A stretch of 64,000 nt of DNA from a virus (IMGVR_UViG_3300035497_000275:1-64000), one strand, 5' to 3'; shown: positions 9,010 through 62,520, numbered from the stretch's first letter. The notes: a model not told the origin generated them from the sequence alone. Translations and numbers: made by a program.

Positions 9010-9881
9010 TTATAAGCCTTTAAAAATATGCTTAATAACATCCTTTGTCCAACCGTTTCCACATAAGGATCGGCGTACATTATCACTGTATCCTTCGGTA
9101 TATCCATCTGGTAAAGTTTGCAACCGTTCATATTCTACGGGAGATAATTTCCGAATCCGTTCATTATCCCAAACTTTCTTTTCCTGATACCCTCCATTGA
9201 CACAAGTAAGAGTTGCACATTTGAATTTTGGATTATATACACGCTTTAATAAATCATGCGTATTGATTTGCAAAGTCGCAATGACCTTTTTATCGTCACC
9301 ATGAAAAATAAACGGTTTATCATAGTAATCTTTTTCTGGTACAGACTCTACCATGATATCTTGTAAAACTGTGTTATTCTTTTCTGGCAAGGGAGCAATT
9401 GGAATGTTCGTCCAATATAGTCTTTCACGATCCTGTGCTGAAAAGAGGTTGCTATTTATGTGATAACAACTTGCCCCCCCAGATTTGCGGTAATGGTATC
9501 TATATCGGCTTTATACTTTGGAACAACATTCTCCAACATGAAATAACGTGGATGAATTTCTTTAACTGCTCTCGCATATTCAAAGAAAATACCAGATTTA
9601 CCATTTAGGCCAGAACAGATCGAATCATTTTCTTGTCGTACTACGGAAAGGCTCTGGCAGCACGTTCCCGCAATCACCAAATCAAATCCATTGAACTGAG
9701 AAAAATCCGCTCCAATTACATTCCCATGATGATGAATGAATGGAAAATGTCGTGAACTGATTTCAATGGCTGGTTGGAAAATCTCGAATGTATGATATTC
9801 GTCCACTGTAATTCCTAATTCCTGCAAGGCAATCAAGCCTGTTTCAATACCGCCACAAATCGACAATACTTTTAATCCCAT
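9010..9881 (-). pseudogene. DNA (cytosine-5)-methyltransferase interrupted by a -1 frameshift in a G7 homopolymer (ORFs 9456..9881 and 9010..9390)
   Basis: The N-part has motifs I (LSICGGIETG), IV (GTCCQSLS) and VI (ENV). It stops after ..ANLGGQVVIT at the coding-strand G7 run (plus C7 at 9474..9480). With G8 the frame reads LGGASCYHINSNLFSAQDRERLYW (motif VIII QxRxR) and continues in frame into the 9010..9390 ORF (RKLSPVEYERLQTLPDGYT, RRSLCGNGWT are motifs IX/X). Confidence 0.7.
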
Positions 9882-9893
9882 GTTTTACTCTTT

Positions 9894-10319
9894 TCAAAAT
9901 AAAGGAGAATTAACGAGCGCATAAACACGGTTATCTCCATCAAAGATAATTTCTTTGATACAGTTTTTGGATTTAATATGATAACACTTGTTACCATCCA
10001 ACTGGTACACTGTCATGCCTGTATTCAACGCATACATCAATTCATCAAAAACACCACGACCAATCATCCCGGAAACCGTAGAAAACACAAGTGTATCACA
10101 TTCAGCAAGTGTATCAATAGCTGCTGTCATGATTTCTGACTCAGCGCAATCCTGCGGAAGAACTTCACTCGGATTTACAATTTCAATTGAACTATCCGGG
10201 AAAGCATCATAGATAACGTTCTTCTCATAAGCCTCCATCTTTGTGTCATACTTCCATGTGTGATGTGCGTAATAAATTTTCACTTGTATACCTCCTATTA
10301 AGTTATCAAATAAGACCAA
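9894..10319 (-). CDS. hypothetical protein; possible nucleoside 2-deoxyribosyltransferase-like fold
   Basis: 141 aa. KIYYAHH near the N-terminus and GVFDELMYALNTGMTVY weakly resemble the NDT/Rcl fold motif FE.GYA.A.GKPV. Tentative. Confidence 0.3.
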   Translation of the reverse strand: MVLFDNLIGGIQVKIYYAHHTWKYDTKMEAYEKNVIYDAFPDSSIEIVNPSEVLPQDCAESEIMTAAIDTLAECDTLVFSTVSGMIGRGVFDELMYALNTGMTVYQLDGNKCYHIKSKNCIKEIIFDGDNRVYALVNSPLF

Positions 10320-10741
10320 CGATTTTTCATTTCTTCTGGTGAAACATAATAATCACGTTTTCTACTTCCAGTCCACGCAATTCCACCAGCTTCGCCATCA
10401 AATGTAAAATTACTTGCTTTTAATGAACTTCCATTTTCAGAAGCCAATGTATAAGTGATTACTCTTTGATACCCCATATCTTTAGCAATACCCAAACAGG
10501 CTCCATATAATTTAGAACAAGCATTTCTTGTTCCATCAACACAATTACGATAAATTTCTAATGTTAATCCATCATCTAAATATCTTGCCGTTGGTCTGCC
10601 GCATATTGCAACTCCACATAATCTGTCATCATCATAACAAGATATTGCAAACTTTCCTCCAACTGGCGGAATATTATGACGGTGATATTGTTTTACATAT
10701 TCTTTTGCTGGAGTAAGATGTATTGGTCTAATTTTTAACAT
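10298..10741 (-). CDS. hypothetical protein
   Basis: 147 aa ORF inside the methyltransferase island; no recognisable motif. Confidence 0.4.
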   Translation of the reverse strand: MLKIRPIHLTPAKEYVKQYHRHNIPPVGGKFAISCYDDDRLCGVAICGRPTARYLDDGLTLEIYRNCVDGTRNACSKLYGACLGIAKDMGYQRVITYTLASENGSSLKASNFTFDGEAGGIAWTGSRKRDYYVSPEEMKNRWSYLIT

Positions 10742-10764
10742 CTTTCAACACTCACTTATTCGCA

Positions 10765-11262
10765 TCACCTTTCTTGCACTCTAAAAATTACTGGAATCAT
10801 TACCGTAGTACGTTCCTGCATCCACGGTTTTGACGGTTCAGAAAATCTATTACTATGTTCATTGACTACGATAATATCTCCTATCGTATAGAAGAAATCG
10901 CAGTTTGATAAATCTTGCGGCAACTCAACTGATTTATCACAAGTTTCTAAATTAATGATTTTATTTAGACACTCTTGTACAGTTTCGAGTACAAATAACA
11001 GAGTTCCATCATGCCGTGATGTTTTTGTTGTAAAATATCTGAAATCAGCATTAGGATCATAGGTAATTGTTGAAGTCATTTCACTTGGTTTATCGCCAAC
11101 CGAATATGTACACTTGATTTGATTGTTCTTATCAAAAGTAATTAAACCAGTTGGAGATAAGACTGTTACATTTTCAAAAGATATATCAAAGCCATCTGCG
11201 CCAAATTCTTGAATTCTCTTTTTAATGAAATCCAAACTCTTATTCATACAATCACCTTTCAA
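10765..11262 (-). CDS. hypothetical protein
   Basis: 165 aa ORF; overlaps the upstream methyltransferase gene by 11 nt. Confidence 0.4.
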   Translation of the reverse strand: MKGDCMNKSLDFIKKRIQEFGADGFDISFENVTVLSPTGLITFDKNNQIKCTYSVGDKPSEMTSTITYDPNADFRYFTTKTSRHDGTLLFVLETVQECLNKIINLETCDKSVELPQDLSNCDFFYTIGDIIVVNEHSNRFSEPSKPWMQERTTVMIPVIFRVQER

Positions 11263-11881
11263 AATCGTCTATACGCTGACACGCTGTTTGATAATATTGA
11301 CCATCCAGTTCATATCCGATAAATCTTCGTCCTGTATGTAAAGCAGCCAATGCCGTTGAACCAGCACCGATAAAACCATCAAATACAATGTCATTTGGCC
11401 TACTGTTATTCCGAATAAACAGTTCGAGAAGTTCTGTCGGCTTTTCTGTTGGATGAACCAATTTCGCAGAAGATACCTTTGCACAGTCAATCACGTCTGC
11501 TATGCGCTTTTCTTGAAATAGTGAACGTCCTTTATGACCGAACAACACCATTTCATATTTTGGTGCATATGCACCTTTTAAGTCACCGCTGCCATGATTG
11601 TTCTTATTCCAAATCAGGATATTCTTCAGCGTAAAGTATTTCTCAAATTCCGTCTTGAAAAATTCAATATGATGCCAACTGCAAAACATATAAATTGCAG
11701 AATCGTTTTTCAAAATACGATGATATTGATATAACGACTTGGAAATTAACTGGTTTGCGTCTTTATCGTTTTGAATCCTATCAAACTTTTCTTTTACGAC
11801 ACGTCTATTACTTCTGTAATTAATCAAATAAGGAGGATCAGTTACAATCAAATCAACTGATTCATCAGGCATTTTCTCCAT
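11252..11881 (-). CDS. DNA methyltransferase, beta-class (N6-adenine or N4-cytosine; DPPY then FxGxG)
   Basis: 209 aa. DLIVTDPPY near the N-terminus, HPTEKP, C-terminal FDGFIGAGST (motif I). Confidence 0.8.
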   Translation of the reverse strand: MEKMPDESVDLIVTDPPYLINYRSNRRVVKEKFDRIQNDKDANQLISKSLYQYHRILKNDSAIYMFCSWHHIEFFKTEFEKYFTLKNILIWNKNNHGSGDLKGAYAPKYEMVLFGHKGRSLFQEKRIADVIDCAKVSSAKLVHPTEKPTELLELFIRNNSRPNDIVFDGFIGAGSTALAALHTGRRFIGYELDGQYYQTACQRIDDFER

Positions 11882-11994
11882 CCCACAAATGCAATCACTG
11901 TTGAAAATTACATTTGTTCGTAGTAAACTACTTTCAAGTGGTTCTCCTTGCCCCCCCCCAAGTTCTCGACTGCATCATGTTTCCCTCCATATTA

Positions 11995-12096
11995 TTACAC
12001 CGGGACTGGATAAGGAGAACAACATGAAAGCATAATTGACAACATCAACGCATATGTAATCAGAAAAATAATATGTTTTGATACTTTTACAGTCAT
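11995..12096 (-). CDS. putative 33-aa hydrophobic peptide (MTVKVSKHIIFLITYALMLSIMLSCCSPYPVPV)
   Basis: AAGGAGGT RBS 5 nt upstream of ATG at 12096. Below the ORF-track size cutoff. Confidence 0.25.
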   Translation of the reverse strand: MTVKVSKHIIFLITYALMLSIMLSCCSPYPVPV

Positions 12097-12118
12097 GATT
12101 ACCTCCTTGTTTTTGTGG

Positions 12119-12847
12119 TTATGTATCTAAAATATATAATTGCTCCGTGATATTTAACCGGGAAGCATTATCCAATGTTCTTTTGACTGGCTGTGACCAG
12201 ATCGACTTCCATTGTACTGGTGCGGCTTGTTCCGAAACCAAAACAATATTCTTAGCAGACATTTCTTCTGCCCAATTCCAGAATTGTTCATGGTCAAATT
12301 CTTGTTGATACCCTGTTGTATTCGCATATGGAATATCACAGTAAATTACACCATGTTCATACTTTGACTGATCAAGCTGCTGATAGTCAAACTCGGCAAA
12401 TTCTACTCCTTGTAATGATGGAATCTGATTTAACAAATTTCGCTTTGCTTCATCATAATAGTTCCGAATTGTGCCGATTTTTGTTTTGACTGTCCCGGCT
12501 CTTCCGCCAAAGAACTTCCCATTATACGATGCAAGAAATCCTACCGCACCGATATACCAATCTGGAAATTGATGATCACCAGTTTGGTAGGATTTTCTGA
12601 CTGCATCATACTCGTCTTTCGTAATTTCATCTGGCAAAGTAGTAATTAAATCCATATTCTTGAATAGTTCAATGAGATAATGGTTGATATCATATCCCAT
12701 TTTCCTATTGCAAGAAATCTTATCAATTACGTTTGCCCCCCCCACGAAAGGCTCAAGGTAAAAATCGGCATCAAAATCGCTGATATAAGTCTGTATAATT
12801 GGAACGATAAACTTAGCAATGCGGGATTTTGAGCCAACGTACTTCAT
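12119..12847 (-). CDS. DNA adenine methyltransferase, Dam (D12 class, alpha)
   Basis: 242 aa. KYVGSKSRIAKFIVPII...EPFVGGANV (motifs X/I) and later CDIPY (DPPY variant), the Dam order. Confidence 0.85.
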   Translation of the reverse strand: MKYVGSKSRIAKFIVPIIQTYISDFDADFYLEPFVGGANVIDKISCNRKMGYDINHYLIELFKNMDLITTLPDEITKDEYDAVRKSYQTGDHQFPDWYIGAVGFLASYNGKFFGGRAGTVKTKIGTIRNYYDEAKRNLLNQIPSLQGVEFAEFDYQQLDQSKYEHGVIYCDIPYANTTGYQQEFDHEQFWNWAEEMSAKNIVLVSEQAAPVQWKSIWSQPVKRTLDNASRLNITEQLYILDT

Positions 12848-12864
12848 ATCAGTTCACCAGACAG

Positions 12865-13764
12865 TTAATTGGTAGAACCAATGTCAATGATAGAAGTTGA
12901 ACCAGTTACAGTAGGCAGTTCACCATTCCACTGTTCATACTTGATCTTTTCAATCAGTTCAGGTGTCAGAGAAGCCGCAATCTTCTTATTTGCATCAGCT
13001 TCGGCCTCTGCCGCAATACGGGTTGCTTCAGCCTTTGCATTGGCATCAATAATCGCCTGTTCCGCATTGATCTCAGCAACTTCTTTATCCTTCTCAGCCT
13101 GAATCTTGGCAGTCTGAGCCTCAATATTCGCCAACTCCAACTCCTGCTGCGCTGTGACCTTTTTCTGAATTGCCGCTGCGGTTTCATCATCAACGGAAAT
13201 ATCCGTAAAGTTTACAGTATCAATGATAATTCCATACTTGTCGAACTTCTCACGAAGGTAAGTGTCCAGTTCTGCATTGATCTCTGTCCGCTTATCACCG
13301 AAAATATCAGTTACAGGATAATTTGCGGAAACCTCCTGCGTCCATGCAATGATCTTAGGCTTAATAAACGAAGTCTTAATATCCTCACCAGATTTGCCCT
13401 TGAATGTGGTAAAGGTTTCTGCGACACGCTCACTGTCAAACCGATAAGAAAATTCCAGATTCACACGAACAGTCTTACCATCGGACGTAGGAATGCTGAA
13501 ACTCTCATCATCAGGGGAATCGCCCTTATTCTCAGACGAAAGATAAGACTGCTCAATACCGATGGAATATGTCGTTACCTTCTTCGTGGGAGAAACAACG
13601 TGCCAGCCCTGTGTCAGCACCTCACCATCGACACCGCCGTTCATATTGTAGACAACGCCGACATAACCAGTAGGAATCCGCTCAGTACAGGCCAGACCAA
13701 GGAATACGCCACCAAAGATCACAATAGCGAGGACTACTGCACCAATAAAACCATTCTTCTTCAA
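12865..13764 (-). CDS. SPFH/band-7 (prohibitin/HflK-like) membrane protein
   Basis: 299 aa. N-terminal TM helix, SPFH-like core, C-terminal Ala/Glu-rich coiled coil. Confidence 0.7.
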   Translation of the reverse strand: MKKNGFIGAVVLAIVIFGGVFLGLACTERIPTGYVGVVYNMNGGVDGEVLTQGWHVVSPTKKVTTYSIGIEQSYLSSENKGDSPDDESFSIPTSDGKTVRVNLEFSYRFDSERVAETFTTFKGKSGEDIKTSFIKPKIIAWTQEVSANYPVTDIFGDKRTEINAELDTYLREKFDKYGIIIDTVNFTDISVDDETAAAIQKKVTAQQELELANIEAQTAKIQAEKDKEVAEINAEQAIIDANAKAEATRIAAEAEADANKKIAASLTPELIEKIKYEQWNGELPTVTGSTSIIDIGSTN

Positions 13765-13931
13765 TTTTCTTTACCATCCTTTTCATTTTCATTAATTTCG
13801 TCTTTCGACATAGAATCCTTTGCATCTTTAAAAATTCGATTCACTAACTTTCCAATCGGAATGTAGCAGAACGAAAGTAAAATACACAAAAGAAACGCAC
13901 CAATAAAGAGTAAAAGTATAAATACAGGCAA
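13761..13931 (-). CDS. putative 56-aa membrane peptide
   Basis: TTG start with GGAGG RBS. Hydrophobic N-terminus PVFILLLFIGAFLLCILLSF. Stop overlaps the SPFH start (TTGA). Confidence 0.3.
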   Translation of the reverse strand: MPVFILLLFIGAFLLCILLSFCYIPIGKLVNRIFKDAKDSMSKDEINENEKDGKEN

Positions 13932-13948
13932 GGTTTAACCTCCGTTCT

Positions 13949-14440
13949 TTATCTTAATTTGATCCAATATCCTATATCCGACATTTCTTTAACCGCAGCA
14001 TCATAGTCGTTGTCGGTAAATACGACTAATTCACTTGGGAAAGGCGCAGGATCGTCTTGGTCATTGAAACGCAATCGTCCTTTTACGAAACAAACGTATT
14101 TTGCATTTGGAAAAACATAATTGTGCTGTGCTTTTACATCTGTTCTTGCTGGAATCAACATCACAGAAGTAATGTGATTTAACTGGCTTTCAATACAACA
14201 CTTTTCAATCCAATCCTCTTGTCCCGGATGTGCCTTCGTCTTACGTTCATAAGGCGGATTACAAAAAACTGTTTGCCCCCCCCAAGTTTGTGCCAGTCCA
14301 TCTTGTTCGATGGTATAGTAGGCATCACACTTATGGTTCGTATCATCTGCACATGGATCAAGTGTGAAATGAAAGACAGAATTCAAGCGATCAAATAACC
14401 ATTGCGGCGTTCCCCAATTATTGTTTCCAGTGCTTAACAA
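13949..14440 (-). CDS. DNA N6-adenine methyltransferase, small phage Dam-like (NPPY) family
   Basis: 163 aa. WGTPQWLFD...TWGGQTVFCNPPY (motif IV NPPY). Confidence 0.7.
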   Translation of the reverse strand: MLSTGNNNWGTPQWLFDRLNSVFHFTLDPCADDTNHKCDAYYTIEQDGLAQTWGGQTVFCNPPYERKTKAHPGQEDWIEKCCIESQLNHITSVMLIPARTDVKAQHNYVFPNAKYVCFVKGRLRFNDQDDPAPFPSELVVFTDNDYDAAVKEMSDIGYWIKLR

Positions 14441-14470: not shown

Positions 14471-14487
14471 CTTGCATTTATGGTTAT
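14471..14487 (-). promoter_or_regulatory. conserved 17-bp motif ATAACCATAAATGCAAG (copy 1)
   Basis: Exact match to the motif also found at 27628, 45318, 50171 and 54263; about 30 nt upstream of the 14440 start. Confidence 0.4.
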
Positions 14488-16667
14488 GTAGTTAAAAAAG
14501 AATTATAGAACATATCCCGAAGCTGGATGATATGTGTTGGATGATCTTCTTGGGCGGAAAGATTCATCACGAATCCATAGAACTGATTTTCAAGAGGTGT
14601 CTGCAACGAACCCATATACTTGAAATGTCCTTGGCGGAAAATTGTATGAGCCATTGACCGCATCTTCTTCCAGAGTTTATAATAAGACAGTTTGAACTTC
14701 ACCATGAATCCAACGCTATCCTCTACCACAAAACCCTCAATCACATGACCATCATACAAATAATCGTCAGTCATGATCTCATCATACCAATTGTAGAAAT
14801 CATGCCAATTCTGAATCTGAATCGCTCGTTTCTTTACCTCGAAGCCAAAATCCTTTCCAAGTTGGACAAGCTGCGAATACGAATACTTTTCAAATTCGAT
14901 CTCATTTTTCACTACATCCAGCAGGAACAAATGTGACTTATCATATTTGATAATATGAGGATCATGCTCCATATCTACACATTCAAACACGAATGTCACA
15001 TTCTTCTGCTTCATGTACTCTTTCAGCACATCCGCATTTTTGACGTTGGCATAGAACATATCATGCAACCAGTCAGAAAATTCTCCAGTAGGATCGGACT
15101 TGCTCGTGATAAAGAAATCATCCAGTTCGGCATCATAAGATACCATTCCAAGAAATCCATTCTCTTTCACATAAGCCGTGACAGGGAACCTGAATTTATG
15201 CTGGAGCATATCAAATCTTGTTTCTGGACGCTCGTTGACATTAAAGAATTTCGGATAGGCTCTTGCAACAACATTGCCAGTTACCGTATTGATAAACAAT
15301 CCTCTGGCCTTTGTTGTCTGCTCATTCCATTTCTTATCATAGAAGGCATTGCGAGTGAAATTGAAAGACGAAATATTTCCGAACTTCTTTTCGTTAATGT
15401 ACTTATTGCGCCGCATCTGGTCAACCAAATCCATTACCGTGGATTCTTTTTCAGTATACTTTTCAGGAATTTCTTCGTCCTGCTGCCTGAATACCGTATT
15501 CCGAATACTGATCGGATGGAAACCATCTGCATCCAGCGTTACAACTCGCAAATCCTTTCCGAATTCCACGCTGCCTTCCAAATCAAAACAACGGTCTGAA
15601 ACTTGAATCGGCAAATCCTGTGTATTTCGATGACCAAACACCTGATATACATTCTCAGGCATCAGTGTATCAAAACAATGAACAACATCTACATACTCAC
15701 TATATTTACCGACACCACGAATCATCTGGTCTGACGCAACCATTGTCAGATTATCAGGAATCATGCTCAAACCAGCGTGTGTGACAAGAACTGTCTTACC
15801 TCCATATGTATAATAGGCGCATTGACTCAGTTTTCGATACAACATTCTGGCAATCTTTGTATCCAGTCCGCTCATTTCAAGCTGCCTTCTTGTTACACGC
15901 TCAAATTCCGGGGACTTCGACACACCACCATGCGCCCAATACCAAAGCCAGCGTTCATGATTTCCTTCCAGCAGGATCACATTCGGACGATCCATAATAC
16001 TGTACAGGAAATTGATGACTTCAACATTTTCAATTCCACGGTCAATATAATCGCCGCAGAAAATGTACAGTTCATCATCCTGAATCCCATCATTCAAATA
16101 CTCCTGAAGGACGGTATTACAACCGTGGATATCACCAATATGATGGATTTTCTTAAAGTTGGAGAAATCCATTGGACGATACCAAATCTTGTCCAACTCG
16201 TCAGGCTGAATCACCGTCACACCCGCTGGAATCTTCTGCATAGCAAACCGGGAATACATATTATCAATGACTTCCTCTGGAACTTGCTTGTAGTATGGTC
16301 TGTTTTTATTTCTCCGTTTACATTCCTCAATAGGAACTGTGGTGAAATCAACGCAGTACATTCGATATCGGTAAGTTTTTGCCATATCCTTATAACGGTT
16401 GATCTCTGCCGTTTTAGAATTTGTAGCATCCACCACCACGAATTCTCCACGCTGCATTCTGGCTTCGAGCATCTGGAACAGTAATTGCCAAACTGTTTTA
16501 TCGTTACCCTGACTGATCCCCATTGAGCCATCCACTTGCATCACCGGGGACTGACACATCAGACGAATATTATCAGCGGAAAGCGTAAACTGTTCCAAAC
16601 CATGCTCTTTGATGTAGGTGGACTTTCCTACGCCAGCCGCACCACGCATCAATAACAATACTCGCAT
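14484..16667 (-). CDS. Pnkp-like RNA repair enzyme: polynucleotide kinase + calcineurin-type phosphatase + ligase-like adenylyltransferase
   Basis: 727 aa. N-terminal P-loop LLLMRGAAGVGKSTY. Central metallophosphatase motifs IGDIHGC, GDYIDRG, GNHE. C-terminal YVKENGFLG resembles nucleotidyltransferase motif I (KxDG/KEDGSL of RNA ligases). Same domain order as bacterial Pnkp. Confidence 0.75.
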   Translation of the reverse strand: MRVLLLMRGAAGVGKSTYIKEHGLEQFTLSADNIRLMCQSPVMQVDGSMGISQGNDKTVWQLLFQMLEARMQRGEFVVVDATNSKTAEINRYKDMAKTYRYRMYCVDFTTVPIEECKRRNKNRPYYKQVPEEVIDNMYSRFAMQKIPAGVTVIQPDELDKIWYRPMDFSNFKKIHHIGDIHGCNTVLQEYLNDGIQDDELYIFCGDYIDRGIENVEVINFLYSIMDRPNVILLEGNHERWLWYWAHGGVSKSPEFERVTRRQLEMSGLDTKIARMLYRKLSQCAYYTYGGKTVLVTHAGLSMIPDNLTMVASDQMIRGVGKYSEYVDVVHCFDTLMPENVYQVFGHRNTQDLPIQVSDRCFDLEGSVEFGKDLRVVTLDADGFHPISIRNTVFRQQDEEIPEKYTEKESTVMDLVDQMRRNKYINEKKFGNISSFNFTRNAFYDKKWNEQTTKARGLFINTVTGNVVARAYPKFFNVNERPETRFDMLQHKFRFPVTAYVKENGFLGMVSYDAELDDFFITSKSDPTGEFSDWLHDMFYANVKNADVLKEYMKQKNVTFVFECVDMEHDPHIIKYDKSHLFLLDVVKNEIEFEKYSYSQLVQLGKDFGFEVKKRAIQIQNWHDFYNWYDEIMTDDYLYDGHVIEGFVVEDSVGFMVKFKLSYYKLWKKMRSMAHTIFRQGHFKYMGSLQTPLENQFYGFVMNLSAQEDHPTHIIQLRDMFYNSFLTT

Positions 16668-18696: not shown

Positions 18697-18765
18697 ACAC
18701 AAGATACGGAATCGAACCGCAATCTCCGTGTTCATCACGGTATTCTTCCATTGAACTATCTCGTG
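18697..18765 (-). ncRNA. tRNA-like element or degenerate tRNA (5-nt anticodon loop)
   Basis: Acceptor stem CACGAGA/TCTTGTG, D-arm GTTC-AATGGAA-GAAT with G18G19, T-arm TGCGG-TTCGATT-CCGTA. The anticodon arm is CCGTG-ATGAA-CACGG, so the loop is only 5 nt, or 7 nt without U33. 69 nt. Confidence 0.4.
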
Positions 18766-22501: not shown

Positions 22502-22589
22502 TGGCGACAGCGGAGGGATTTGAACCCCCGGACGATTTCTCGCCTACGGTTTTCAAGACCGTTACCTTCAACCACTCGGTCACGCTGCC
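22502..22589 (-). tRNA. tRNA-Ser (anticodon UGA), CCA encoded
   Basis: Acceptor GGCAGCG/CGCTGTC, 3-bp D-stem, anticodon arm ACGGT-CTTGAAA-ACCGT, long variable arm, T-arm GGGGG-TTCAAAT-CCCTC, CCA. 88 nt. Confidence 0.85.
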
Positions 22590-23487: not shown

Positions 23488-23844
23488 TCAAATTTTCTTA
23501 AAAAACTTTGCGCCCTGAATTTTCGCCTCGTGATAGGTAGTCCGATTGCCACGGGCATTGGTGATCCACAGTTCCATTTCCTGCTCCTTATACTCCACCA
23601 AAACAGGCTCCACAAACCCATTCCACCACATAGAAACACACTGGTTATCCATCTTTTTAAGCTGGTCATATTTCAGTTCTTGTCTATCTGTACAAGGCGG
23701 AAACGGGCAGTTGTCGCACTCACTCCTATCACATCCCTGTGAAGGAGATTTTGCTGCCAAATAAATACCTAACAGCAGACAGAATCCCAAGACAACAATC
23801 ATCAAAATCATAGCGATTCTCCTTATTATGTAATCTAATATCAA
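23488..23844 (-). CDS. hypothetical membrane-anchored protein
   Basis: 118 aa. N-terminal TM helix, Cys-rich segment CDRSECDNCPFPPC. Preferred over the overlapping 23355..23669 ORF. Confidence 0.35.
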   Translation of the reverse strand: MILDYIIRRIAMILMIVVLGFCLLLGIYLAAKSPSQGCDRSECDNCPFPPCTDRQELKYDQLKKMDNQCVSMWWNGFVEPVLVEYKEQEMELWITNARGNRTTYHEAKIQGAKFFKKI

Positions 23845-24219
23845 TTACCAGCAATCATAGTCTGTGATATTTTCTTCCTCGCCGCACACTGGACACTTAA
23901 TGGAAATAGCCGTTCCAACTCCCGTGCCGACCAGATCATAGACATAATGACCACCATTCTTACAGGACGCATAATGACGCTCCCGGAACGCCTTTTGTGC
24001 GTTGCGCTCTTTTTCAGACAGCATCATTAAGGAGCGTTCATGCAAAGAATTGATTTCTGCATCACGGCTTTTAATTTCTTCTGCCTGATCATATTCTTTC
24101 AGCCTTTTCCGAAGTCGTGCATTATCATCACGAAGTTCCTGCACCTGTTCCGTGATTTTCTCCATTAACTGTTCAATGCTATAATCATGGAACACAAAAT
24201 GAAATCCCTTCTTTTTCAT
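23845..24219 (-). CDS. hypothetical protein (coiled coil plus C-terminal CxxC)
   Basis: 124 aa ORF. Confidence 0.4.
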   Translation of the reverse strand: MKKKGFHFVFHDYSIEQLMEKITEQVQELRDDNARLRKRLKEYDQAEEIKSRDAEINSLHERSLMMLSEKERNAQKAFRERHYASCKNGGHYVYDLVGTGVGTAISIKCPVCGEEENITDYDCW

Positions 24220-26373: not shown

Positions 26374-27213
26374 TTAATTATAGGACGCAACAAAAACAAA
26401 CTGGTTGATGTAGTCCGGCTGCTGTGTGAAGATAGGAATTTCCATATCAAAGCACCACTTATTTCGCACGATCTCACCAATCTTCACAGGCTTCTTTACA
26501 CAACAAGTACCACGCTTACAAGGTGTAGAGAAATCATTCCAGTTGATCCCCTTTTCTGTGAAAAGCATATCCTGAATCTTATCGCAGGATTGGTTCATCA
26601 ACTGCTTGTGGGAGAAATTAGCCTGACCGACAGATTGAATACTGTTCCGTGTGCAATCTACCTGTCTCCACACGAAGTAATTGGCAACATCATCCTTCGG
26701 CACATTGAATACACGGGCATCAAACAATGCCTTATCAAACCGGGATGTGTAAATCTGCGCCAGCTTCAAGGCATCCCGATCCACATTCGGATCATTTGTT
26801 CCGCCTTCATACCAGTCTGGCAAAGTCTCATTGCCCCATTCATCCACGTTCTTACGCCATGCGGCATTGAAGGCCATTGTTGCCATAGACGCTGAGACAC
26901 TACACATCTTCTGAAGCGTATTATCAAACCAAGAATCGCTTGCAATCGTCTGATAATCGACCAGCAACAGAGAAATTTCATCCGACTGTGTATAACCAAG
27001 CACACAGCCCTGAATATTTTCGCAGAGATACTTCATCGTATCCTGCATCGTTTTCATCAAAATCTGATCAAAAGGTTTCTTAAATCCTCTTGTAAATGTG
27101 TGAAAGGCTTTCCCATCAATCCGAATGATAACAGGCATACGCCGCACCAAATGCGCCCTTGTGACATTCTCGTAGGTTTTCATACGGTTGCCAAGATTAT
27201 CACGCTTATCCAT
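26374..27213 (-). CDS. Thg1-like protein (tRNA-His guanylyltransferase / 3'-5' nucleotidyltransferase family)
   Basis: 279 aa. KTYENVTRAHLVRRMPVIIRIDGKAFHTFTRGFKKPFD and YTQSDEISLLLVD match the Thg1 catalytic RIDG..FH.F and SDE blocks. Confidence 0.8.
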   Translation of the reverse strand: MDKRDNLGNRMKTYENVTRAHLVRRMPVIIRIDGKAFHTFTRGFKKPFDQILMKTMQDTMKYLCENIQGCVLGYTQSDEISLLLVDYQTIASDSWFDNTLQKMCSVSASMATMAFNAAWRKNVDEWGNETLPDWYEGGTNDPNVDRDALKLAQIYTSRFDKALFDARVFNVPKDDVANYFVWRQVDCTRNSIQSVGQANFSHKQLMNQSCDKIQDMLFTEKGINWNDFSTPCKRGTCCVKKPVKIGEIVRNKWCFDMEIPIFTQQPDYINQFVFVASYN

Positions 27214-28041: not shown

Positions 28042-28230
28042 TCACTCCTGTCTATTTCTAATCTGCTGCTTTGCAATTTCTACACGGGACAAACCGCAGA
28101 TCGGGCAATAGAGAAACTGTTTTTCTAAAGGAAACCGATAGCTGCCACCAGCCATAATCACACGAGAACCATATTTGTCTGTCTCATAAGAAGCAGTACC
28201 AAAATCAAAGCGACTGCAAAAATCACACAT
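28042..28230 (-). CDS. small zinc-ribbon protein
   Basis: 62 aa. CDFC...CPICG. Confidence 0.3.
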   Translation of the reverse strand: MCDFCSRFDFGTASYETDKYGSRVIMAGGSYRFPLEKQFLYCPICGLSRVEIAKQQIRNRQE

Positions 28231-28754
28231 TACGATTCCTCCATCAGTTTCTTAACTCGTTCAATTTCAGCAGCAGTATGTGGTGTTCCTCCATCATTCA
28301 TATCAATATACCACTGTAAAACTTCATTGCGAGTCTTTAAATCGTTTACGTTCACAATCATACTATGATCAACAAGGTCTAATTCGCCTTCATAATCCAA
28401 GTACAGAATTCCAAACGCAGGAATTTCATTATTCAAGAAACGGCGAATTGCAGTAATCCGCTGCAACCCATCAACGCACACAAAATCATTATAACCATCT
28501 GTTACAGGAATGTGCCAACTTGGATTATTAAAATACAATGTACGACCAGATTTACCACAACGCAAAATGTATTCAATAAATTTGATTTGCTGTTCCTGTG
28601 TCCAAACATGACCACGTTGAAAATCTGGAATCATTTGCAATCCTTCTTCTTCAATCCATTGGTCAATTTGTTTAATCAAAAATTTCAATGACATATTGAC
28701 TTCGTATGAGCCACATCTTGTAAATTTAGGAATATCACGAAATTTCATTTTCAC
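28230..28754 (-). CDS. DUF262-like (ParB/Srx-fold) protein
   Basis: 174 aa. DFQRGHVW and VCVDGLQRITAIRRF match the DUF262 QR..W / DGQQR blocks. Confidence 0.5.
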   Translation of the reverse strand: MKMKFRDIPKFTRCGSYEVNMSLKFLIKQIDQWIEEEGLQMIPDFQRGHVWTQEQQIKFIEYILRCGKSGRTLYFNNPSWHIPVTDGYNDFVCVDGLQRITAIRRFLNNEIPAFGILYLDYEGELDLVDHSMIVNVNDLKTRNEVLQWYIDMNDGGTPHTAAEIERVKKLMEES

Positions 28755-30039: not shown

Positions 30040-31377
30040 TTACACCTCCAGATATGTTTTTGCCTGTTCCATCAAAACAGACCTTTTATTTTCCAATGTG
30101 CCTTCCACCACGGCATCCAGCAACTTTTTCAAAACTGCTCCAAGCTGGATACCTTGACGGAAACCAAGTTCCATCAGGTCTTTTCCGCTGACCGCCAAAT
30201 CCTTTAAGGTATAGCAGTCCTGCTCGGCCTGAATCTCCGCATAGATTTCCCAAATCTTTGAAAGGTTCGCTCGATCATCCGCAATGGGAGTCTGCGCCGC
30301 TTTATCTGCTGCCTTGACGTGCAACAGGCGTTCAAACTGTTCCGCTCCATAACGGTTCAAACAACGGCGCACAGAGGCTTTTGTGGGCGCAATCTCATGG
30401 TCATGAAATTCCACAAGCTGCGTAACAGTTTCCACCGTTTTATTATCAAAACGAAGATTCTTCAAGGAATTTTCCGCTATTCCAGCACTGATCACAGAAT
30501 GGTGATAGAAATGTCCATTCCCCTGTTCATCCAGCGTCATGCAATGGGGTTTTCCAAGGTCATGATAAAGTAGCGCAAGGCGGACATACAAATCCTTCGG
30601 CGCATAGGAAACTGCCGTGACAGTATGATTCCACACGTCCATATAATGATGAGGATTATGCTGCAAAAATCCAACGGCTGGCGTGATTTCCGGGATGATG
30701 ACGGCGAAAATCTCCTGATAACAGCGAAGCATGGTATAGCAAGCGTCACTCAGCAGGATTTCAGACAGTTCTCCAATCATCCGCTCTGGCGCAATTTGCT
30801 TCAGCAAATCCTTATGACGGAACATGGCTTCCTCTGTCCGCTTTTCCACAAAGAATCCAAACCGGGACGCAAAGCGAATGGCACGGAGAATCCGCAAAGC
30901 ATCCTCCTGAAACCGCTTATCTGGATTTCCAACACAGCAGATTTGTCCAAGTTTCAAATCAAAACGGCTTTTGGAATAGTCGATCACTCTGCCGCTGCTG
31001 TCTGCCGCCATTGCGTTGATCCGAAAATCACGGCGGGACAAATCTTCCTTTAGGTCACTGACGAATTCCACAGAATCAGGATGACGATGATCCGAATACA
31101 CACCATCTTTACGAAACGTGGTGATTTCATAACCTACACCATCCAGCAGGACAGTCAATGTTCCATGCTTCAATCCCGTTTCAATAACACGGAAATTACG
31201 GAAAATAGATTTCATCTGTCCCGGCAACGCACTGGTGCAAATGTCCCAATCATGCGGCGTTCTTCCAAGCAGACTATCCCGGACACATCCGCCCACCACA
31301 TAGGCGGAACATCCCGCATCCGTCAAAATATTCATCAACTGACGGGGAGCATCAGGAATTTCAATATAGGTGTCCAT
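30040..31377 (-). CDS. CCA-adding tRNA nucleotidyltransferase with C-terminal HD domain
   Basis: 445 aa. Pol-beta head motif AYVVGGCVRDSLLGRTPHDWDICT. C-terminal HD signature LLYHDLGKPH. Confidence 0.85.
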   Translation of the reverse strand: MDTYIEIPDAPRQLMNILTDAGCSAYVVGGCVRDSLLGRTPHDWDICTSALPGQMKSIFRNFRVIETGLKHGTLTVLLDGVGYEITTFRKDGVYSDHRHPDSVEFVSDLKEDLSRRDFRINAMAADSSGRVIDYSKSRFDLKLGQICCVGNPDKRFQEDALRILRAIRFASRFGFFVEKRTEEAMFRHKDLLKQIAPERMIGELSEILLSDACYTMLRCYQEIFAVIIPEITPAVGFLQHNPHHYMDVWNHTVTAVSYAPKDLYVRLALLYHDLGKPHCMTLDEQGNGHFYHHSVISAGIAENSLKNLRFDNKTVETVTQLVEFHDHEIAPTKASVRRCLNRYGAEQFERLLHVKAADKAAQTPIADDRANLSKIWEIYAEIQAEQDCYTLKDLAVSGKDLMELGFRQGIQLGAVLKKLLDAVVEGTLENKRSVLMEQAKTYLEV

Positions 31378-31628: not shown

Positions 31629-32705
31629 TTAATCCAACCCAATGAATTTACCTAAATACTGCCTTTCAAAGCACAAGTCCGGCATACCATCCTGCATGAT
31701 GGAATAGCGGTTGACATACATGGTAAATTCCTCGATCTCCTTGCTGTTTGGCTTTTCCGGGAGGGAGGAATTTTCCTTTGCGTAGTTCATCCGCTTTTCG
31801 TACTCATTGACCATATCGTAAAATTCCTGTCGAAACGTTCCATCTTCGTTCTGGAATTCTCCGTTGCGAATGGACATTAACAACGGCAAATCATGCTCCC
31901 GGTAGGTAATGATCTCTTCCTTTTCCAGAATGTCAATGCACATCAGGTACAGACGGATCAAGTGCATAGCGTGTTTTGCCAAATAAGCATCGTCTTTCTT
32001 CTTGTTCCGCTGCGTGATTTTTCCGTAGTCCTTGATAATTTTGTTGAGGTCGCTCCAAATGTTCTTATAATCCCGCAACGGATAATGCTTTAAGGAAACG
32101 TCCGCAAAAATCTCCGTGTCCAAATCCTCCTGCTGCGACTGGTCAACATACAACTGGAATGTTCCGTTTTCAAAATCCTGATACCGCTCGTTGAAAGAAA
32201 ACATAGCGGATTTACAGGAGGACAAAATGTGCGCCTCTTTTTCTGACTGCCCATAATTGTTTCTCGCCAAGGCCGCTTGCAGACGGCGAAGCTGCTGTGT
32301 GGCATATCCGCCAAAAGCGTAAATGGCTTTCCGGGACAGGAACATCTTACGCTTTTCCACCAGCAGTTTTCCGATCTCATTATAGAAATGGTAACTGTCT
32401 GGTCTGCATCCAAGTAATTCGATTGTGTTAGGATTACAGTTTTCCAACAGGCCAACCAGTTTATTAAAACTATAAATCGTGGTGTCCGTCTGGTTATCCA
32501 CGACCTGTTCAAAGTTGGTTCTTCCAAGCAAATCCCGGCTTGAATTCAAAGCGCATCCACGCACGTCAATGTCGGAGTCCGGGACGTTTGTTCCATAGGC
32601 GTGACTGCCGCCAAAAGTGGCAAATATCATCCGCTGTCCAAGATGTTCATTGGTATTGATAAACTGATATTCAGGACGTGCAAGCACTTCAATAATGTCC
32701 ATCAT
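31629..32705 (-). CDS. Pol-beta superfamily nucleotidyltransferase (NTase head plus helical tail)
   Basis: 358 aa. FATFGGSHAYGTNVPDSDIDVRG gives the GS-x10-DxD NTase signature. Sits next to the CCA-adding enzyme. Its stop overlaps the start of 32702..33418. Confidence 0.6.
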   Translation of the reverse strand: MMDIIEVLARPEYQFINTNEHLGQRMIFATFGGSHAYGTNVPDSDIDVRGCALNSSRDLLGRTNFEQVVDNQTDTTIYSFNKLVGLLENCNPNTIELLGCRPDSYHFYNEIGKLLVEKRKMFLSRKAIYAFGGYATQQLRRLQAALARNNYGQSEKEAHILSSCKSAMFSFNERYQDFENGTFQLYVDQSQQEDLDTEIFADVSLKHYPLRDYKNIWSDLNKIIKDYGKITQRNKKKDDAYLAKHAMHLIRLYLMCIDILEKEEIITYREHDLPLLMSIRNGEFQNEDGTFRQEFYDMVNEYEKRMNYAKENSSLPEKPNSKEIEEFTMYVNRYSIMQDGMPDLCFERQYLGKFIGLD

Positions 32706-46145: not shown

Positions 46146-46898
46146 ATGACGAATAAAATTGTTGAAAATTCCGAAAATGTGAAAATCGAATTTGCTCCTT
46201 GGTTCGAGGCCATGATCGACCAAAAGGCGCAAACAGCAGCTAAAGTCGCCGCTCCTATTATGGATGAAAGCTATTGTGAGCGTGAACATATCAGTCATGA
46301 ATCTGTTGAGCCGATTCGGTCACTGGATGATGTGGAGCGGATCAAGAATTACTTTTTAACCCGTAAGGGGCATGGAAACAACAGTATTCGCAATTACGCC
46401 TATTTTGTCCTTTCGCTGAATATTGCACGGAGGGCGGGGGATATTTTAAATCTCCATGTATATGACGTGCTGAATAAGGACGGTACTTTTAAAACCCACG
46501 TCACTTTCGAGCATGAGCAAAAAACCGGGAAAAAATCTGACGTGCTTTTAAATAGTAAGGCAGTTGAAGCGTTGACTATGTATTTTAACACATTGGGCGA
46601 ATATAAAATGTCTGACTGGCTTTTCCCCAAACTGAATGATCCTGCTGAACATATCAGTGTGGATGGAATGAGGCGGATGCTTCAACGGGCAGTTAAAGAT
46701 TTGGGGTTGGACATTCATATTGGGACACATTCTCTGCGTAAGACTATGCCTTATCATGTTATCAGTAACAGCACAAATACTGAGGACGAAGTTATTATTT
46801 CACAATTCCTCAAGCACAATGATGTAAAAACCACTTATCACTATATAGGGCGCAGCCAGAGCGAAATGGACGCATTTGTGGAGGCGCATGGTATTTAA
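46146..46898 (+). CDS. tyrosine-type site-specific recombinase/integrase (short, catalytic domain only)
   Basis: 250 aa. ARRAGDI (Arg), GTHSLRKT (HxxR), TTYHYIG (Tyr) in the order of the tyrosine recombinase catalytic residues. Confidence 0.75.
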   Translation: MTNKIVENSENVKIEFAPWFEAMIDQKAQTAAKVAAPIMDESYCEREHISHESVEPIRSLDDVERIKNYFLTRKGHGNNSIRNYAYFVLSLNIARRAGDILNLHVYDVLNKDGTFKTHVTFEHEQKTGKKSDVLLNSKAVEALTMYFNTLGEYKMSDWLFPKLNDPAEHISVDGMRRMLQRAVKDLGLDIHIGTHSLRKTMPYHVISNSTNTEDEVIISQFLKHNDVKTTYHYIGRSQSEMDAFVEAHGI

Positions 46899-54287: not shown

Positions 54288-54929
54288 ATGAAAGTTTTGG
54301 AATTGTTTGCTGGGACTCGTTCTATTGGCAAGGCTTTTGAACGGGGGGGGCATGAAGTTTTTAGTATAGAATGGGATCAGCATTTTGAGAACATTAATCT
54401 TTATGCCGATATTGGTAAGGTAACTGCTGAAGAAATTATTAAACAGTTTGGCAGACCTGATGTGATTTGGGCTTCCCCTGATTGTACTACATATTCAATT
54501 GCTGCGATTTCACATCATAGAAGAAAAGAAGATGATGGCAATTTAGCAGCGGTTTCAGAATACGCAAAATTTTGTGATCAAGTAAATGTTCATGTTTTGG
54601 AGTTGATTAAAGAATTGAATCCAAAATTTTGGTTCATTGAAAATCCTCGTGGTGGATTAAGGAAGATGCGTTTTATGCAAGGGCTTCCACGTTATACTGT
54701 TACATATTGTCAATATGGCGATTCTCGTATGAAACCAACAGATATTTTTACAAATCACCCAAATCCAGAATTTAAACCGCCTTGCCATAATGGTGATCCG
54801 TGTCATGTATCTGCGCCAAGAGGTGCTAAGACTGGAACACAAGGATTAAAGGGGCATATTGAACGTTCTATTATTCCAGAACAATTATGTGACCATATTG
54901 TAAAAATTTGCGAAGATTATTGGGAGTGA
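54288..54929 (+). CDS. compact SAM-dependent DNA methyltransferase, cytosine-5-like
   Basis: 213 aa. LELFAGTRSIG (motif I), ASPDCTTYS (PC motif), FIENPRG (ENV-like). Contains a G8 run at 54343..54350. Confidence 0.5.
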   Translation: MKVLELFAGTRSIGKAFERGGHEVFSIEWDQHFENINLYADIGKVTAEEIIKQFGRPDVIWASPDCTTYSIAAISHHRRKEDDGNLAAVSEYAKFCDQVNVHVLELIKELNPKFWFIENPRGGLRKMRFMQGLPRYTVTYCQYGDSRMKPTDIFTNHPNPEFKPPCHNGDPCHVSAPRGAKTGTQGLKGHIERSIIPEQLCDHIVKICEDYWE

Positions 54930-58300: not shown

Positions 58301-58475
58301 ATTTCTATCAGAATACGGACTTAAAACTTTGTGGTTTGCAAATAAGATCGGAATTGACAAAATCAAATTGAGCCGTTTTTTGTCAGGTCAACGTCCAATC
58401 AATGATACTGAGCAATTGAAGAAAATGTATTTGTTCATTGATGATTATAAAGAGAGAATGAGCGGTTTGATGTGA
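55308..58475 (+). CDS. large protein, candidate single-subunit DPBB-type RNA polymerase (YonO / beta-prime-like)
   Basis: 1055 aa. ADFDSDTM at 57102..57125 closely resembles the universal beta-prime Mg-binding motif NADFDGDQM. No polB/polA/primase motif set. GGGAGGG RBS. Confidence 0.4.
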   Translation: MLESGVRIPSLDGKDIFISNHYLKKNEVGYKLRNQNGDLNLSRFINTLDYSLDLIKMQEVYASVYKQNDFSFHKNGKDYTQRVINVTFKYSNKLFNRVRNNLYVKFGYAVDDLVFEDCVAFHNGELVGIQVGEDVKSPLDKEKIDKCFYFENGTYQVKANIPILNGVADIRSQIYQDGFYCDGIHFVRFKRSSGSSRVGKCLFIDERLYDQMHEWEMCGIEVKHGQDIDLAALEPYIALTLSSIVGTIQIRPENILVIDDYSSVFKERAVATRLVDGRLVSKPEDVEISNSIWDGQSLMDKSLFGEYKQWGMLLLRARFFKSCCFNANIQEWFRDNGITEVSQLNGRTQAKRIEDVKLITTPSSIKYLKFGNLDTWLNTLETTFGVVKHEKPTHFFDGRMVQTHYQLLNTLQMAYQEVEQLVQPSLDFAKMVKTDPAALRYQISYQYHSPDDTFYTKAVTSKNDIIYRLLSINDKFAETKMYRQFCNDLIKSFIKNLRCGHILVHGNYSTLCGNSIEMLKQAIGTFDGTSVIEINTVHSTKFENGKELLGSRSPHVTVGNVLVTTNVWHDEITKYMNSTPEIVYINSIGENILERLSGADFDSDTMLLTDNEILVTAAKRNYQNFPVPTKLVESAKRKRKYTNEEKADLDVKTSVNKIGEIINLSQELNSILWDRLNSGESVSDVMDLYCDISQLDVMSNLEIDSAKRENPANNTYELQCLKKKYDVRDKKNRHVRPLFFKYIDGYKGYRDDYYLYSDQDDDIQKIARLEKSTEAYKFKSDYEAKSKESGNEVKVIVERGRMSYRSHKTSMDYLQHCIDKNFSMPRKQSTKLLSDILTCPDDSPEEINLELEEQTLCLIKDTKAKINGVWNSDEFSSREKRELAQETRVECIQEMTNIDFNQSTLYHFLCRVEQEDIQKNNDNGEDRYLRFLFYLMMDEQNWKMRSAIGRLIFRSKTKVYELVESDDGDILIYNFKYRRVENGMPYESSDEMKNIVNSFLSEYGLKTLWFANKIGIDKIKLSRFLSGQRPINDTEQLKKMYLFIDDYKERMSGLM

Positions 58476-58628: not shown

Positions 58629-58847
58629 TTGATTAGTATTACTAAGCCTGAGTCCGAAAAGATTCGTGAAGTATTCCCTCGTGCGGAAATCGTGCGAACT
58701 TGTATTCAAAAGAGCAAGCGTCACCACTACTATCTGCCAGAGAACGAGAAGTATTTGCGTCTGATCGTGGACAGCAATCATGCGGCTGCTTCTATCTGCC
58801 AGCAGATCGACAAGGAACGTGAGCGCAAGCGTAAGTATCGTGGTTAA
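58629..58847 (+). CDS. hypothetical small basic protein
   Basis: 72 aa, TTG start. Confidence 0.3.
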   Translation: MISITKPESEKIREVFPRAEIVRTCIQKSKRHHYYLPENEKYLRLIVDSNHAAASICQQIDKERERKRKYRG

Positions 58848-58861
58848 TGGAGGTGGACAAT

Positions 58862-62301: not shown

Positions 62302-62376
62302 GGCGTGTTAGTCAAGTGGTTAAGACACCGCCCTTTCACGGCGGTAACACGAGTTCGAGTCTCGTACACGTCACCA
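62302..62376 (+). tRNA. tRNA-Glu (UUC)
   Basis: Acceptor GGCGTGT/ACACGTC, anticodon arm CCGCC-CTTTCAC-GGCGG, T-arm ACGAG-TTCGAGT-CTCGT, CCA encoded. 75 nt. Confidence 0.85.
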
Positions 62377-62520
62377 ATAGGGAACGGTTAATTAGAATAT
62401 CATAAACTCTTTGTTAGACGAAAGGGTTCGCTGCTCATGAGGCGTGTCTATATGATATTGTAAGTAAGGATTAACCAAGTAATAAGAGTTATGGAGTGGT
62501 TTTCTTATTACAAAAGACAA

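Follow-up and report, generated by a model that had tools for sequence, protein, structure and literature searches.

Exactly five runs of seven or more G or C occur in the stretch of viral DNA IMGVR_UViG_3300035497_000275:1-64000 (64,000 nucleotides at its full length, hereafter the window), and each of them lies in a different one of five Pfam-recognisable DNA methyltransferase (MTase) genes. We found that about 18 related phages, one of them in the assembly of a Flintibacter muris isolate, carried tracts at the orthologous codons, with lengths from G5 to G11 and with in-frame (ON) and frameshifted (OFF) states shuffled among the genomes. The runs are probably contingency loci of the slipped-strand type, each of which switches a phage DNA-modification gene independently of the others, a reading that a preliminary description of this DNA had proposed from the sequence alone and that the tracts of the relatives, their reshuffled states and the intact, selected OFF alleles now support. 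Such a locus should carry its run, longer than the threshold of instability, within an open reading frame (ORF) or promoter, should change in length at orthologous sites more than other indels arise, and should toggle the frame of a gene that is otherwise intact and under selection. Runs of G7-G9 were located inside all five ORFs; the length changes were seen across the clade and not within the clone that the window represents; and the frame toggled in genes whose remainder was intact and selected.

Guanine runs in the methyltransferase genes

A homopolymer scan was performed over the whole window (39.6% G+C). The runs that it returned and the genes that contain them, with lengths as read on the coding strand, were as follows.

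9010..9881, minus strand: C5 cytosine MTase gene (290 amino acids, aa; PF00145), split by a frameshift into the ORFs 9456-9881 and 9010-9390
9474..9480, minus strand: C7 in the scan, poly-G on the coding strand; G7 tract of the 290-aa C5 MTase, frameshifted OFF, with a stop 5 codons past Gly-Gly
11252..11978, minus strand: beta-class N6_N4 MTase gene with corrected start (PF01555); Shine-Dalgarno sequence (SD) GGAGGG at 11982-11987 and ATGATG at 11973-11978
11951..11959, minus strand: C9 in the scan, poly-G on the coding strand; G9 tract in codons 8-10 of the beta-class MTase, OFF, the ORF being MMQSRTWGGARRTT followed by a stop, likewise 5 codons past Gly-Gly
12119..12847, minus strand: D12-class Dam-like MTase gene (PF02086)
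12736..12743, minus strand: C8 in the scan, poly-G on the coding strand; G8 tract within S-adenosylmethionine (AdoMet) motif I (PFVGGAN) of the D12 Dam-like MTase, in frame ON
13949..14440, minus strand: phage Dam-type N6-adenine MTase gene (PF05869; 163-aa gene call)
14276..14283, minus strand: C8 in the scan, poly-G on the coding strand; G8 tract of the PF05869 Dam, encoding TWGGQ just upstream of NPPY, ON
54288..54929, plus strand: compact 213-aa C5 MTase gene (PF00145)
54343..54350, plus strand: G8 in the scan; G8 tract in codons 19-21 (ERGGH) of the compact C5 MTase, ON, and also G8 in the contigs L100 and L102

All five MTase genes, the re-annotated beta-class gene included, are in frame at G8. 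Considering this shared ON length, three genes of the clone are ON (PF05869 Dam, D12 Dam-like and compact C5) and two are OFF, namely the 290-aa C5 gene at G7 and the beta N6/N4 gene at G9. Each tract sits in the 5' half of its orphan MTase gene, and the gain or loss of one G brings a stop within about 5 codons, ahead of or within the catalytic motifs. The exclusive association of these runs with the five MTase genes had been put forward in the preliminary description and was confirmed by the run scan together with the Pfam matches; the intact tracts were likewise found to be G8, encoding FVGGA, TWGGQ and ERGGH as had been described.

The abundance and location of the runs were compared with chance, using an analytic expectation and shuffles. 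Five runs of at least 7 were observed against about 1.5 expected, and four of at least 8 against about 0.3 expected. Runs of at least 5 numbered 16 with 36 expected, so that short runs were depleted and the spectrum was bimodal; the next-longest G/C run is a single G6 at 58920, and there is no C6. The MTase genes make up 5.4% of the window, which gives a probability of 4.6e-7 that all five runs fall inside MTase genes and of 1.6e-8 that each gene receives one. The Pfam lists of called genes covered the entire window and about 26 kb beyond it, and no sixth MTase was present in them. Nor was any further G/C run of 7 or more found in the adjoining 26 kb. The possibility that such runs are common elsewhere in the genome, which had been raised as grounds for abandoning the contingency-locus reading, was thus not realised in the roughly 90 kb of the ~124-kb genome that were covered.

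The two OFF genes were investigated individually. The G9 tract had been placed in the leader of the beta-class MTase gene, which was mistaken: the start of this gene was mis-called by two gene callers, which annotated 11252-11881 only, and the tract is intragenic, in a gene frameshifted OFF behind an SD and the ATG at 11978. On the coding strand the tract reads GGAGGGaaacATGATGcagtcgagaactt-G9-caaggagaa. A run of G8 or G11 puts the ATG at 11978, which follows the SD, in frame with the MTase (MMQSRTWGGQGEPLESSLLRTNVIFNSDCICGMEKMPDESVDLIVTDPPY), and the product is MMQSRTWGGQGEPLESSLLRTNVIFNSDC...DPPY. The same layout was present in 7 relatives, with an SD, an ATG 6-8 codons upstream of the run and the peptide (K/Q/R)TWGGQ..P...SLRTNVIFN.DC; the (K/Q/R)TWGGQ peptide was conserved solely in the G8-equivalent frame, and the ON length was G8 modulo 3 in every relative. 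The 290-aa C5 gene reads ...TANLGGASCYHINS... at G8, and the repaired protein aligned end to end with many 290-aa homologues (77-87% identity). The claim that this gene is broken at G7 and restored by G8 therefore held, since the restored product matches full-length homologues. Its orthologous tract varied from G5 to G11 in relatives and was mostly ON.

Two side observations may be added. Motif IV of the D12 Dam-like protein is DIPY, not the canonical DPPY, and is conserved in relatives; judging from this motif, MTase activity should not be assumed for it. The G6 at 58920-58925 (plus strand) falls at about codon 25 of a ClpP-like protease gene (58847-59494), in the context aaactt-G6-tcgatg. 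It is also G6 in the relative L199 and is either a sub-threshold or a nascent tract.

Run lengths and reading frames in related phages

An alignment of the C5 MTase led to 80 IMG/VR loci, to which look-ups added L107/L108, L109/L110, L191, L199, L214 and L215. Members of the close clade (77-88% protein identity, 36-39% G+C) had a syntenic island with tracts at orthologous positions. The island comprises PNK/ligase, PF05869 Dam, D12 Dam, beta MTase, PAPS-reductase-like and C5 MTase genes and a small ORF, with an NPPY MTase or MT-A70 gene in some cases. In about 1.1 Mb sampled from the clade next in distance (52-59% identity), tracts were essentially absent. ON and OFF states in the relatives, scored by homology, were distributed as follows.

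PF05869 Dam (tract G7, G8 or G9 in relatives): ON at G8; ON in 6 genomes, OFF in 10 (G7 or G9)
D12 Dam (tract G5-G9 in relatives): ON at G7, or at G8 in the window owing to a GTG codon; ON in about 10, OFF in 5
Beta MTase: ON at G8 modulo 3; ON in 1, OFF in 8 (G6, G7, G9, G10)
C5 MTase (290 aa): ON length varies with context; ON in about 16 of 18-19, OFF in the window and L191 (in L215 with a second lesion too)
PAPS-reductase-like gene (two tracts in some genomes): ON length varies; ON in few, OFF in most, via either tract
PNK/RNA ligase: ON at G6 or G7; ON in 12 of 15, OFF in 3
Small ORF: ON at G8; ON in 2, OFF in 2
Compact C5: ON at G8; ON in the window, OFF in the 88%-identical relative L199 (G9)

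Almost every distinct genome had its own combination of ON and OFF genes. Moreover, the tracts of the relatives extended beyond MTases to the PAPS-reductase-like gene, the PNK/RNA ligase (RNA-repair) gene and the small ORF, and up to about 8 tract-bearing modification genes occurred in one genome. The PNK/phosphatase/RNA-ligase gene that flanks the MTase island of the window (14484..16667, minus strand) has no tract (EMSGLD), while relatives carry G6-G8 at the same codons (EAGGLD). Similarly, the small ORF reads SQNAVS in the window and tract-bearing SGGAVS in relatives. The MT-A70 gene of L128 is split by C9, and its repaired protein matched PF05063 over the full length (E = 3e-29). A 175-aa NPPY protein of the relatives carries C7 or C8; it gave weak Pfam matches only and is, from its sequence, a probable adenine MTase.

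Counts of G/C runs in the close clade and distant homologues were again bimodal, with 66, 19, 49, 26 and 9 for lengths 5, 6, 7, 8 and 9, and 6 for lengths 10-11. Only two G7 runs occurred in about 250 kb of the structural-gene region of clade members. One coincided with the start codon annotated for an ORF and may be the SD of a downstream ATG; the other was just past the stop of the same ORF. Both look intergenic.

The lengths of the runs changed between genomes that were otherwise nearly the same. L112 and L114 are 99.88% identical, with 19 substitutions in 16.5 kb and 3 indels, all of which were in G runs; the sole indel between L116 and L118 (99.4% identical) was in the beta tract (G7 and G9). 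Altogether, every indel was in a G run in two of the three near-identical pairs (99.4-99.9% identical). In the distant SPFH-linked family that is described below, G6, G7, G8 and G9 were found at one site among 98.5-99.9%-identical genomes.

The OFF alleles did not look like degenerating genes. The addition or removal of 1 nt restored a full-length ORF in all of them. When the ratio of nonsynonymous to synonymous substitution rates (dN/dS) was computed on repaired frames, it was 0.05-0.2 even where both alleles were OFF, with dS up to saturation. Examples are the PF05869 Dam of L128 and L129 (0.07), the PAPS-reductase-like gene of L115 and L191 (0.055) and the beta MTase of the window and L124 (0.071). 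Such low values between OFF alleles show that these are not decaying pseudogenes. Purifying selection is evident even in genes that were OFF in the majority of the alleles sampled, and the state of being OFF is therefore transient on an evolutionary time scale. The tracts themselves persisted across the clade at dS above 1. Considering that GGG is the rarest Gly codon (14%), the retention of GGG-GGG codons indicates selection for the run itself.

These results bear on the suggestion that the tracts are non-adaptive hotspots, in which Gly-Gly codons of dispensable genes grew into runs and the ON/OFF pattern reflects ongoing gene loss. We regard this as improbable. The MTase island is in fact accessory and variable, with different genes in different relatives, many alleles are OFF, and the focal clone shows no length heterogeneity, all of which would suit gene loss. 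An allele of the C5 MTase in L215 (2126; ENA ERZ13405010, 2.8x coverage) might also be counted in its favour: it combines G11 with the loss of motif VIII through a deletion of about 18 nt further downstream, and it is either genuinely dead, a true pseudogene, or a low-coverage assembly error. Nevertheless, gene loss fits poorly with the dN/dS between OFF alleles, with the lack of a second lesion in any of about 40 OFF alleles, and with tracts maintained in the rarest Gly codon at saturated synonymous divergence. More than 10 independent tract origins, moreover, were concentrated in DNA-modification genes, while runs of G5-G6 were depleted and the structural region was almost free of tracts.

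Inheritance of the tracts from a common cassette was considered and rejected, as the compact C5, PNK and small-ORF sites gained or lost the run in situ within a conserved protein context. More distant homologues of the compact C5 MTase have A(K/R)GH without a tract where the clade has RGGH, and the tract of this gene evolved in place from A(K/R)GH.

The possibility that the tract lengths are sequencing or assembly artefacts was evaluated with other assemblies of the same phage. Some platforms are prone to errors in homopolymers, and two of the genes give the impression of being broken. Exact-protein look-ups recovered at least 10 independent assemblies, from the JGI samples 3300035495, 3300035498, 3300035499, 3300043004, 3300043075, 3300043077, 3300043078 and 3300043104 and the Logan runs SRR11792099, SRR11792166, SRR11792607 and SRR11792608. 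They came from different samples, were 99.95-100% identical to the window (0-2 single-nucleotide polymorphisms per 20 kb) and agreed at each tract that they covered: G8 in the PF05869 Dam, G8 in D12, G9 in beta, G7 in the 290-aa C5 and G8 in the compact C5 gene. The G7 at 9474 was identical in all 8 independent contigs covering it. Contig breaks at the tracts were considered as a possible sign of heterogeneous reads. In one sample the contigs broke near the G9 tract (L087, L091); other breaks were at least 200 nt from the tracts. The same lengths in this many independent JGI and Logan assemblies exclude assembly error, and the patterns of the relatives are coherent and gene-specific, so an artefact is hardly credible. 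Inspection of independent assemblies for length heterogeneity had been recommended in the preliminary description. None was present in the clone at the consensus level, but the simple homopolymer error that had been named as the alternative was excluded by the same comparison.

Another family carries tracts of its own. The SPFH-linked loci (L001-L080), in which the MTase island is not syntenic, first suggested that tracts were not associated with MTases, a suggestion that was dropped when these loci proved to form a more distant family, some of whose tracts do lie in MTase or PAPS-reductase genes. Runs of length 5 to 10 numbered 383, 17, 4, 24, 12 and 2 there. In several of its members (L019, L020, L027, L028, L041, L042, L044-L046) a G7-G9 run is located about 200 nt upstream of the SPFH gene (e.g. 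at 9802 in L027) and 5 nt before the ATG or TTG of a small membrane-protein gene (G8-tagag-ATG). Its length varied among 99.6%-identical genomes, and it may be a poly-G SD or a spacer that gives translational phase variation. A high-GC (56%) distant relative (L052, 19936-20888, and L057) has one C5 MTase with two tracts, a coding G9 (ON would be G8) and a C8 near the ORF end, and the N6_N4 MTase adjoining the C5 gene of this type has G8 or G9 between 99.9%-identical genomes.

Sequence flanking the runs

All five tracts of the window are flanked as (T/C)-Gn-CA, in agreement with the preliminary description. We surveyed the flanks of G7+ runs in these five tracts and in the clade loci L107, L111-L129, L191, L199 and L214. 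CA followed the run in 33 of 36 distinct flank variants, and A preceded it in none; for background runs of G3-G5 the corresponding values were 4-13% and 25-37%. The rule tracked the G strand even where the C run was on the coding strand. Of 25 variants in the more distant SPFH-linked family, 19 had T after the run and 1 had A. A TTG...CAA inverted-repeat hairpin was tried as the flank rule and rejected, because TT was present upstream at only about half of the sites; what is consistent is a pyrimidine (Y) at -1 and CA at +1/+2.

This strand dependence is relevant to programmed recoding, by which transcriptional slippage (of the host RNA polymerase or a YonO-like enzyme) or ribosomal frameshifting would make each tract an expression attenuator and not a heritable switch, some enzyme being produced even from alleles that are out of frame. 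Homopolymers are known slippage sites of RNA polymerases, the G7 and G9 states were stable in all assemblies of the focal clone, and strong purifying selection persists in genes that are mostly OFF (8 of 9 genomes for beta, most for the PAPS-reductase-like gene), as recoding would allow. However, there is no conserved out-of-frame arrangement, since in-frame, +1 and -1 alleles of the same genes all occur, and the 290-aa C5 MTase and PNK are in frame in about 85% of genomes, so the frame matters. In addition, some tracts are poly-C on the coding strand and their flank signature still follows the G strand, which argues for a feature at the DNA level rather than at the mRNA level. Recoding is therefore unlikely to be the main role of the tracts.

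If the flanks act on DNA, Y-Gn-CA might be primarily a signal in its own right (a primase start, a nicking or HNH site, or a regulator site), with the frameshift as a by-product or as an actively promoted effect. The flank rule itself (CA in 33 of 36, never a preceding A), its adherence to the G strand and the different preference of the distant family are in keeping with such a signal, and the phage has genes for several HNH_3 endonucleases and for a replisome of its own. On the other hand, CA is in many cases part of a conserved codon that is ancestral, as with His CAT of the compact C5 and Ala GCA of the small ORF, and may simply reflect sites able to grow a stable run; pyrimidine borders might resist absorption into the run by A-to-G transitions; and no candidate factor was identified. 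A primary signalling role is thus very improbable.

A related idea is that the tracts are targets of a dedicated, sequence-directed diversification and not passive slippage sites. Its basis is the lineage-specific flanks, Y-Gn-CA in the clade and Gn-T(A/G) in the sister family, which keep to the G strand whatever the coding orientation, and from the flanks we judge it conceivable though rather unlikely. If it were true, the flank would mark sites at which changes in length are promoted by a replisome component or nickase, for instance an HNH enzyme or a primase that initiates on ...GCA. The tracts would then form a programmed generator of combinatorial methylomes from up to about 8 DNA-modification genes, and the host methylome could be reprogrammed in lysogens.

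Several points weigh against slipped-strand contingency loci and have to be set beside the evidence above. Simple slippage would not lead one to expect the conserved Y-Gn-CA flank. The near-identical pairs imply a change rate per tract of about 10^2-10^3 times the per-site substitution rate, which is modest compared with classical bacterial phase variation, though consensus sequences underestimate it. At the consensus level no length heterogeneity was found across the 10 or more clone assemblies. That 8 of 9 genomes have the beta MTase OFF, and that most have the PAPS-reductase-like gene OFF, could fit a relaxed need for these genes. Moreover, the C5 frameshift of the window could equally reflect loss of the run-adjacent T and not of a G, to judge from the flanks (aatct-G7 in the window versus aatctt-G7 in L109 and aaactt-G7 in L214); gain of a G would restore the protein even if the T was lost. 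Finally, several of the enzymes have divergent motifs (DIPY in D12; CCQ and PDC in C5 genes), and their methylation activity is a prediction.

The phage genome and known switching systems

The window belongs to a ~124-kb SPbeta-like phage of gut Clostridia. Called genes matched the Pfam families YonB, YonD_N, YonG_N, YonJ_CC and Phage_SPbeta_YorH, so SPbeta-like hallmark families are present, and the phage encodes DnaB, a phage Pol III alpha, an NAD-dependent ligase and an integrase (46146-46898); it is probably temperate. The ends of a 123,740-bp JGI contig overlap by about 136 bp, which suggests that the genome is circular or terminally redundant; the overlap maps to about 23758-23893 of the window, which thus spans the contig junction. 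The nearest relative in a named organism was in the assembly of the mouse-gut isolate Flintibacter muris DSM 110149 (PNK/ligase 74% identical), where the related element lies at about 72-95 kb of contig NZ_CALPCP010000004.1. More distant relatives were in Acetatifactor and Christensenella assemblies. Other searches added little. INPHARED, searched in near and distant modes, returned short MTase fragments only and no relatives; the D12 Dam gene as a query found no related loci in IMG/VR; the exact-protein look-up of the 31629-32705 product found no record; and a DNA-ligase query for the replication region of relatives gave 2 loci only. A pattern scan of metagenomes with the beta-tract flanks and a variable gap had 0 hits, meaning that the collection scanned is without this strain.

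Some other genes of the window deserve mention. RNA- and tRNA-repair genes and tRNAs were found at 14484-16667, 26374-27213, 30040-31377, 31629-32705, 18697-18765 and 22502-22589 (all minus strand) and at 62302-63264 (plus strand). The set consists of a PNK/phosphatase/T4-type RNA ligase fusion, a Thg1-like 3'-5' polymerase, a CCA-adding enzyme, RlaP, a 9-tRNA array and two tRNA-Ser(UGA), and it suggests countermeasures to tRNA-cleaving defences. A 1055-aa ORF without a Pfam match (55308-58475, plus strand) has a GADFDSD motif and an SPbeta-like gene context, and is only suspected, from these features, to be a candidate YonO-like single-subunit RNA polymerase. Within the MTase island, a gene without a tract (10298-10741, minus strand) had a weak, below-cut-off match to the Mom-like family PF25680 (E = 3e-4), and a GmrSD_N (DUF262) domain protein is encoded at 28230-28754 (minus strand). 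The themes of these last two are DNA modification or modification-dependent restriction.

For the contingency loci we propose the following mechanism. A run in register (G8 for all five genes) gives a full-length enzyme, and the runs would gain or lose Gs in replication through slipped-strand mispairing, as in the established mechanism, by slipping of the phage replisome (DnaB, Pol III alpha and ligase). Comparison across the relatives shows that the genes flip ON and OFF independently and that run lengths change far faster than other indels. Many of the 2^5 methylation states would then coexist in a phage population, and a larger number in relatives with up to about 8 genes. Some progeny would be protected from methylation-sensitive restriction (Types I-III), and other progeny would evade restriction of the methylation-dependent kind (Type IV or DpnI-like) or be spared what the enzymes cost. 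It is in this sense that we infer switching at the population level with a benefit for anti-restriction or host range. Because a relative is present in a cultured isolate, F. muris DSM 110149, the system is directly testable; a tract locked in the ON state would read GGAGGTGG.

In bacteria, simple sequence repeat (SSR) contingency loci are known in MTases, as in the phasevarions built on Type III mod genes of Haemophilus, Neisseria, Helicobacter and Moraxella, and poly-G/C tracts occur in restriction-modification genes of Campylobacter and H. pylori. The loci described here resemble them in having an intragenic G/C run of about 7-11, a 1-nt frame toggle, several independent loci, strain-variable length and location in MTase genes. 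They differ in that they belong to orphan MTases of a phage, which represent at least five unrelated classes, and in that the presumed benefit is protection of phage DNA and not control of a bacterial regulon. Nor do res or hsd partners adjoin the MTases: none of the families res, hsdR and hsdS appeared in the Pfam gene lists, and the neighbours were an SPFH protein, small ORFs and other MTases. With no Type III or Type I context, the system is not a phasevarion. In lysogens, methylation may still regulate host genes, given the integrase and the relative in the F. muris isolate assembly. To our knowledge, the gut Clostridia host lineage has no record of poly-G phase variation.

SPbeta-group Bacillus phages (SPbeta, SPR, phi3T, rho11) encode orphan or multispecific MTases, in which a single C5 MTase has several target-recognition domains. 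The present phage shares with them an SPbeta-like genome and phage-borne MTases for self-protection against host restriction, but its clade has many separate MTases of different classes, each with a tract, and we know of no homopolymer control in the Bacillus group. Phage-borne orphan MTases are usually treated as constitutive anti-restriction armour. If our interpretation is right, a clade of large gut phages puts every MTase, and other DNA-modification genes, under independent stochastic switches; methylation would be a liability about as often as an asset (e.g. against Type IV or DpnI-like defences), and phage populations would carry a combinatorial epigenetic repertoire. Such switches would also explain why these genes are frequently annotated as broken or truncated in metagenomes, and annotation pipelines should repair or flag the tracts. 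A literature search found no description of homopolymer-controlled MTase arrays in phages.

The closest phage precedents are two. In phage T2, a poly-A tract in agt shifts sensitivity between TgvAB and McrBC (Gomez, Barrick and Waters, bioRxiv 2025, PMC12633550), and poly-G tracts in receptor-binding genes of a Campylobacter phage are reported by Sorensen et al. (Cell Rep 2021), as cited in PMC12823448. Like these, the present case, in an SPbeta-like genome with IMG/VR viral contigs as relatives, involves a phage-encoded homopolymer in coding sequence and ON/OFF diversity by frameshift. It shares with T2 agt a DNA-modification enzyme and, as we would expect, a trade-off between two types of restriction, and the proposed hedging benefit may be likened to that case. 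A runs are ordinary in the AT-rich genome of T2, which has 168 simple-sequence repeats of at least 6 (PMC12633550), whereas the G runs here are compositionally exceptional and almost confined to DNA-modification genes. The Campylobacter phage tracts, by contrast, are in receptor-binding genes and not in modification genes. Unlike either precedent, the present system, which is known from sequence alone, has one tract per MTase gene and would yield a combinatorial methylome. A multi-gene "methylome hedge" would then join the phage contingency loci described so far, which comprise receptor-binding genes and, as a single case, T2 agt.

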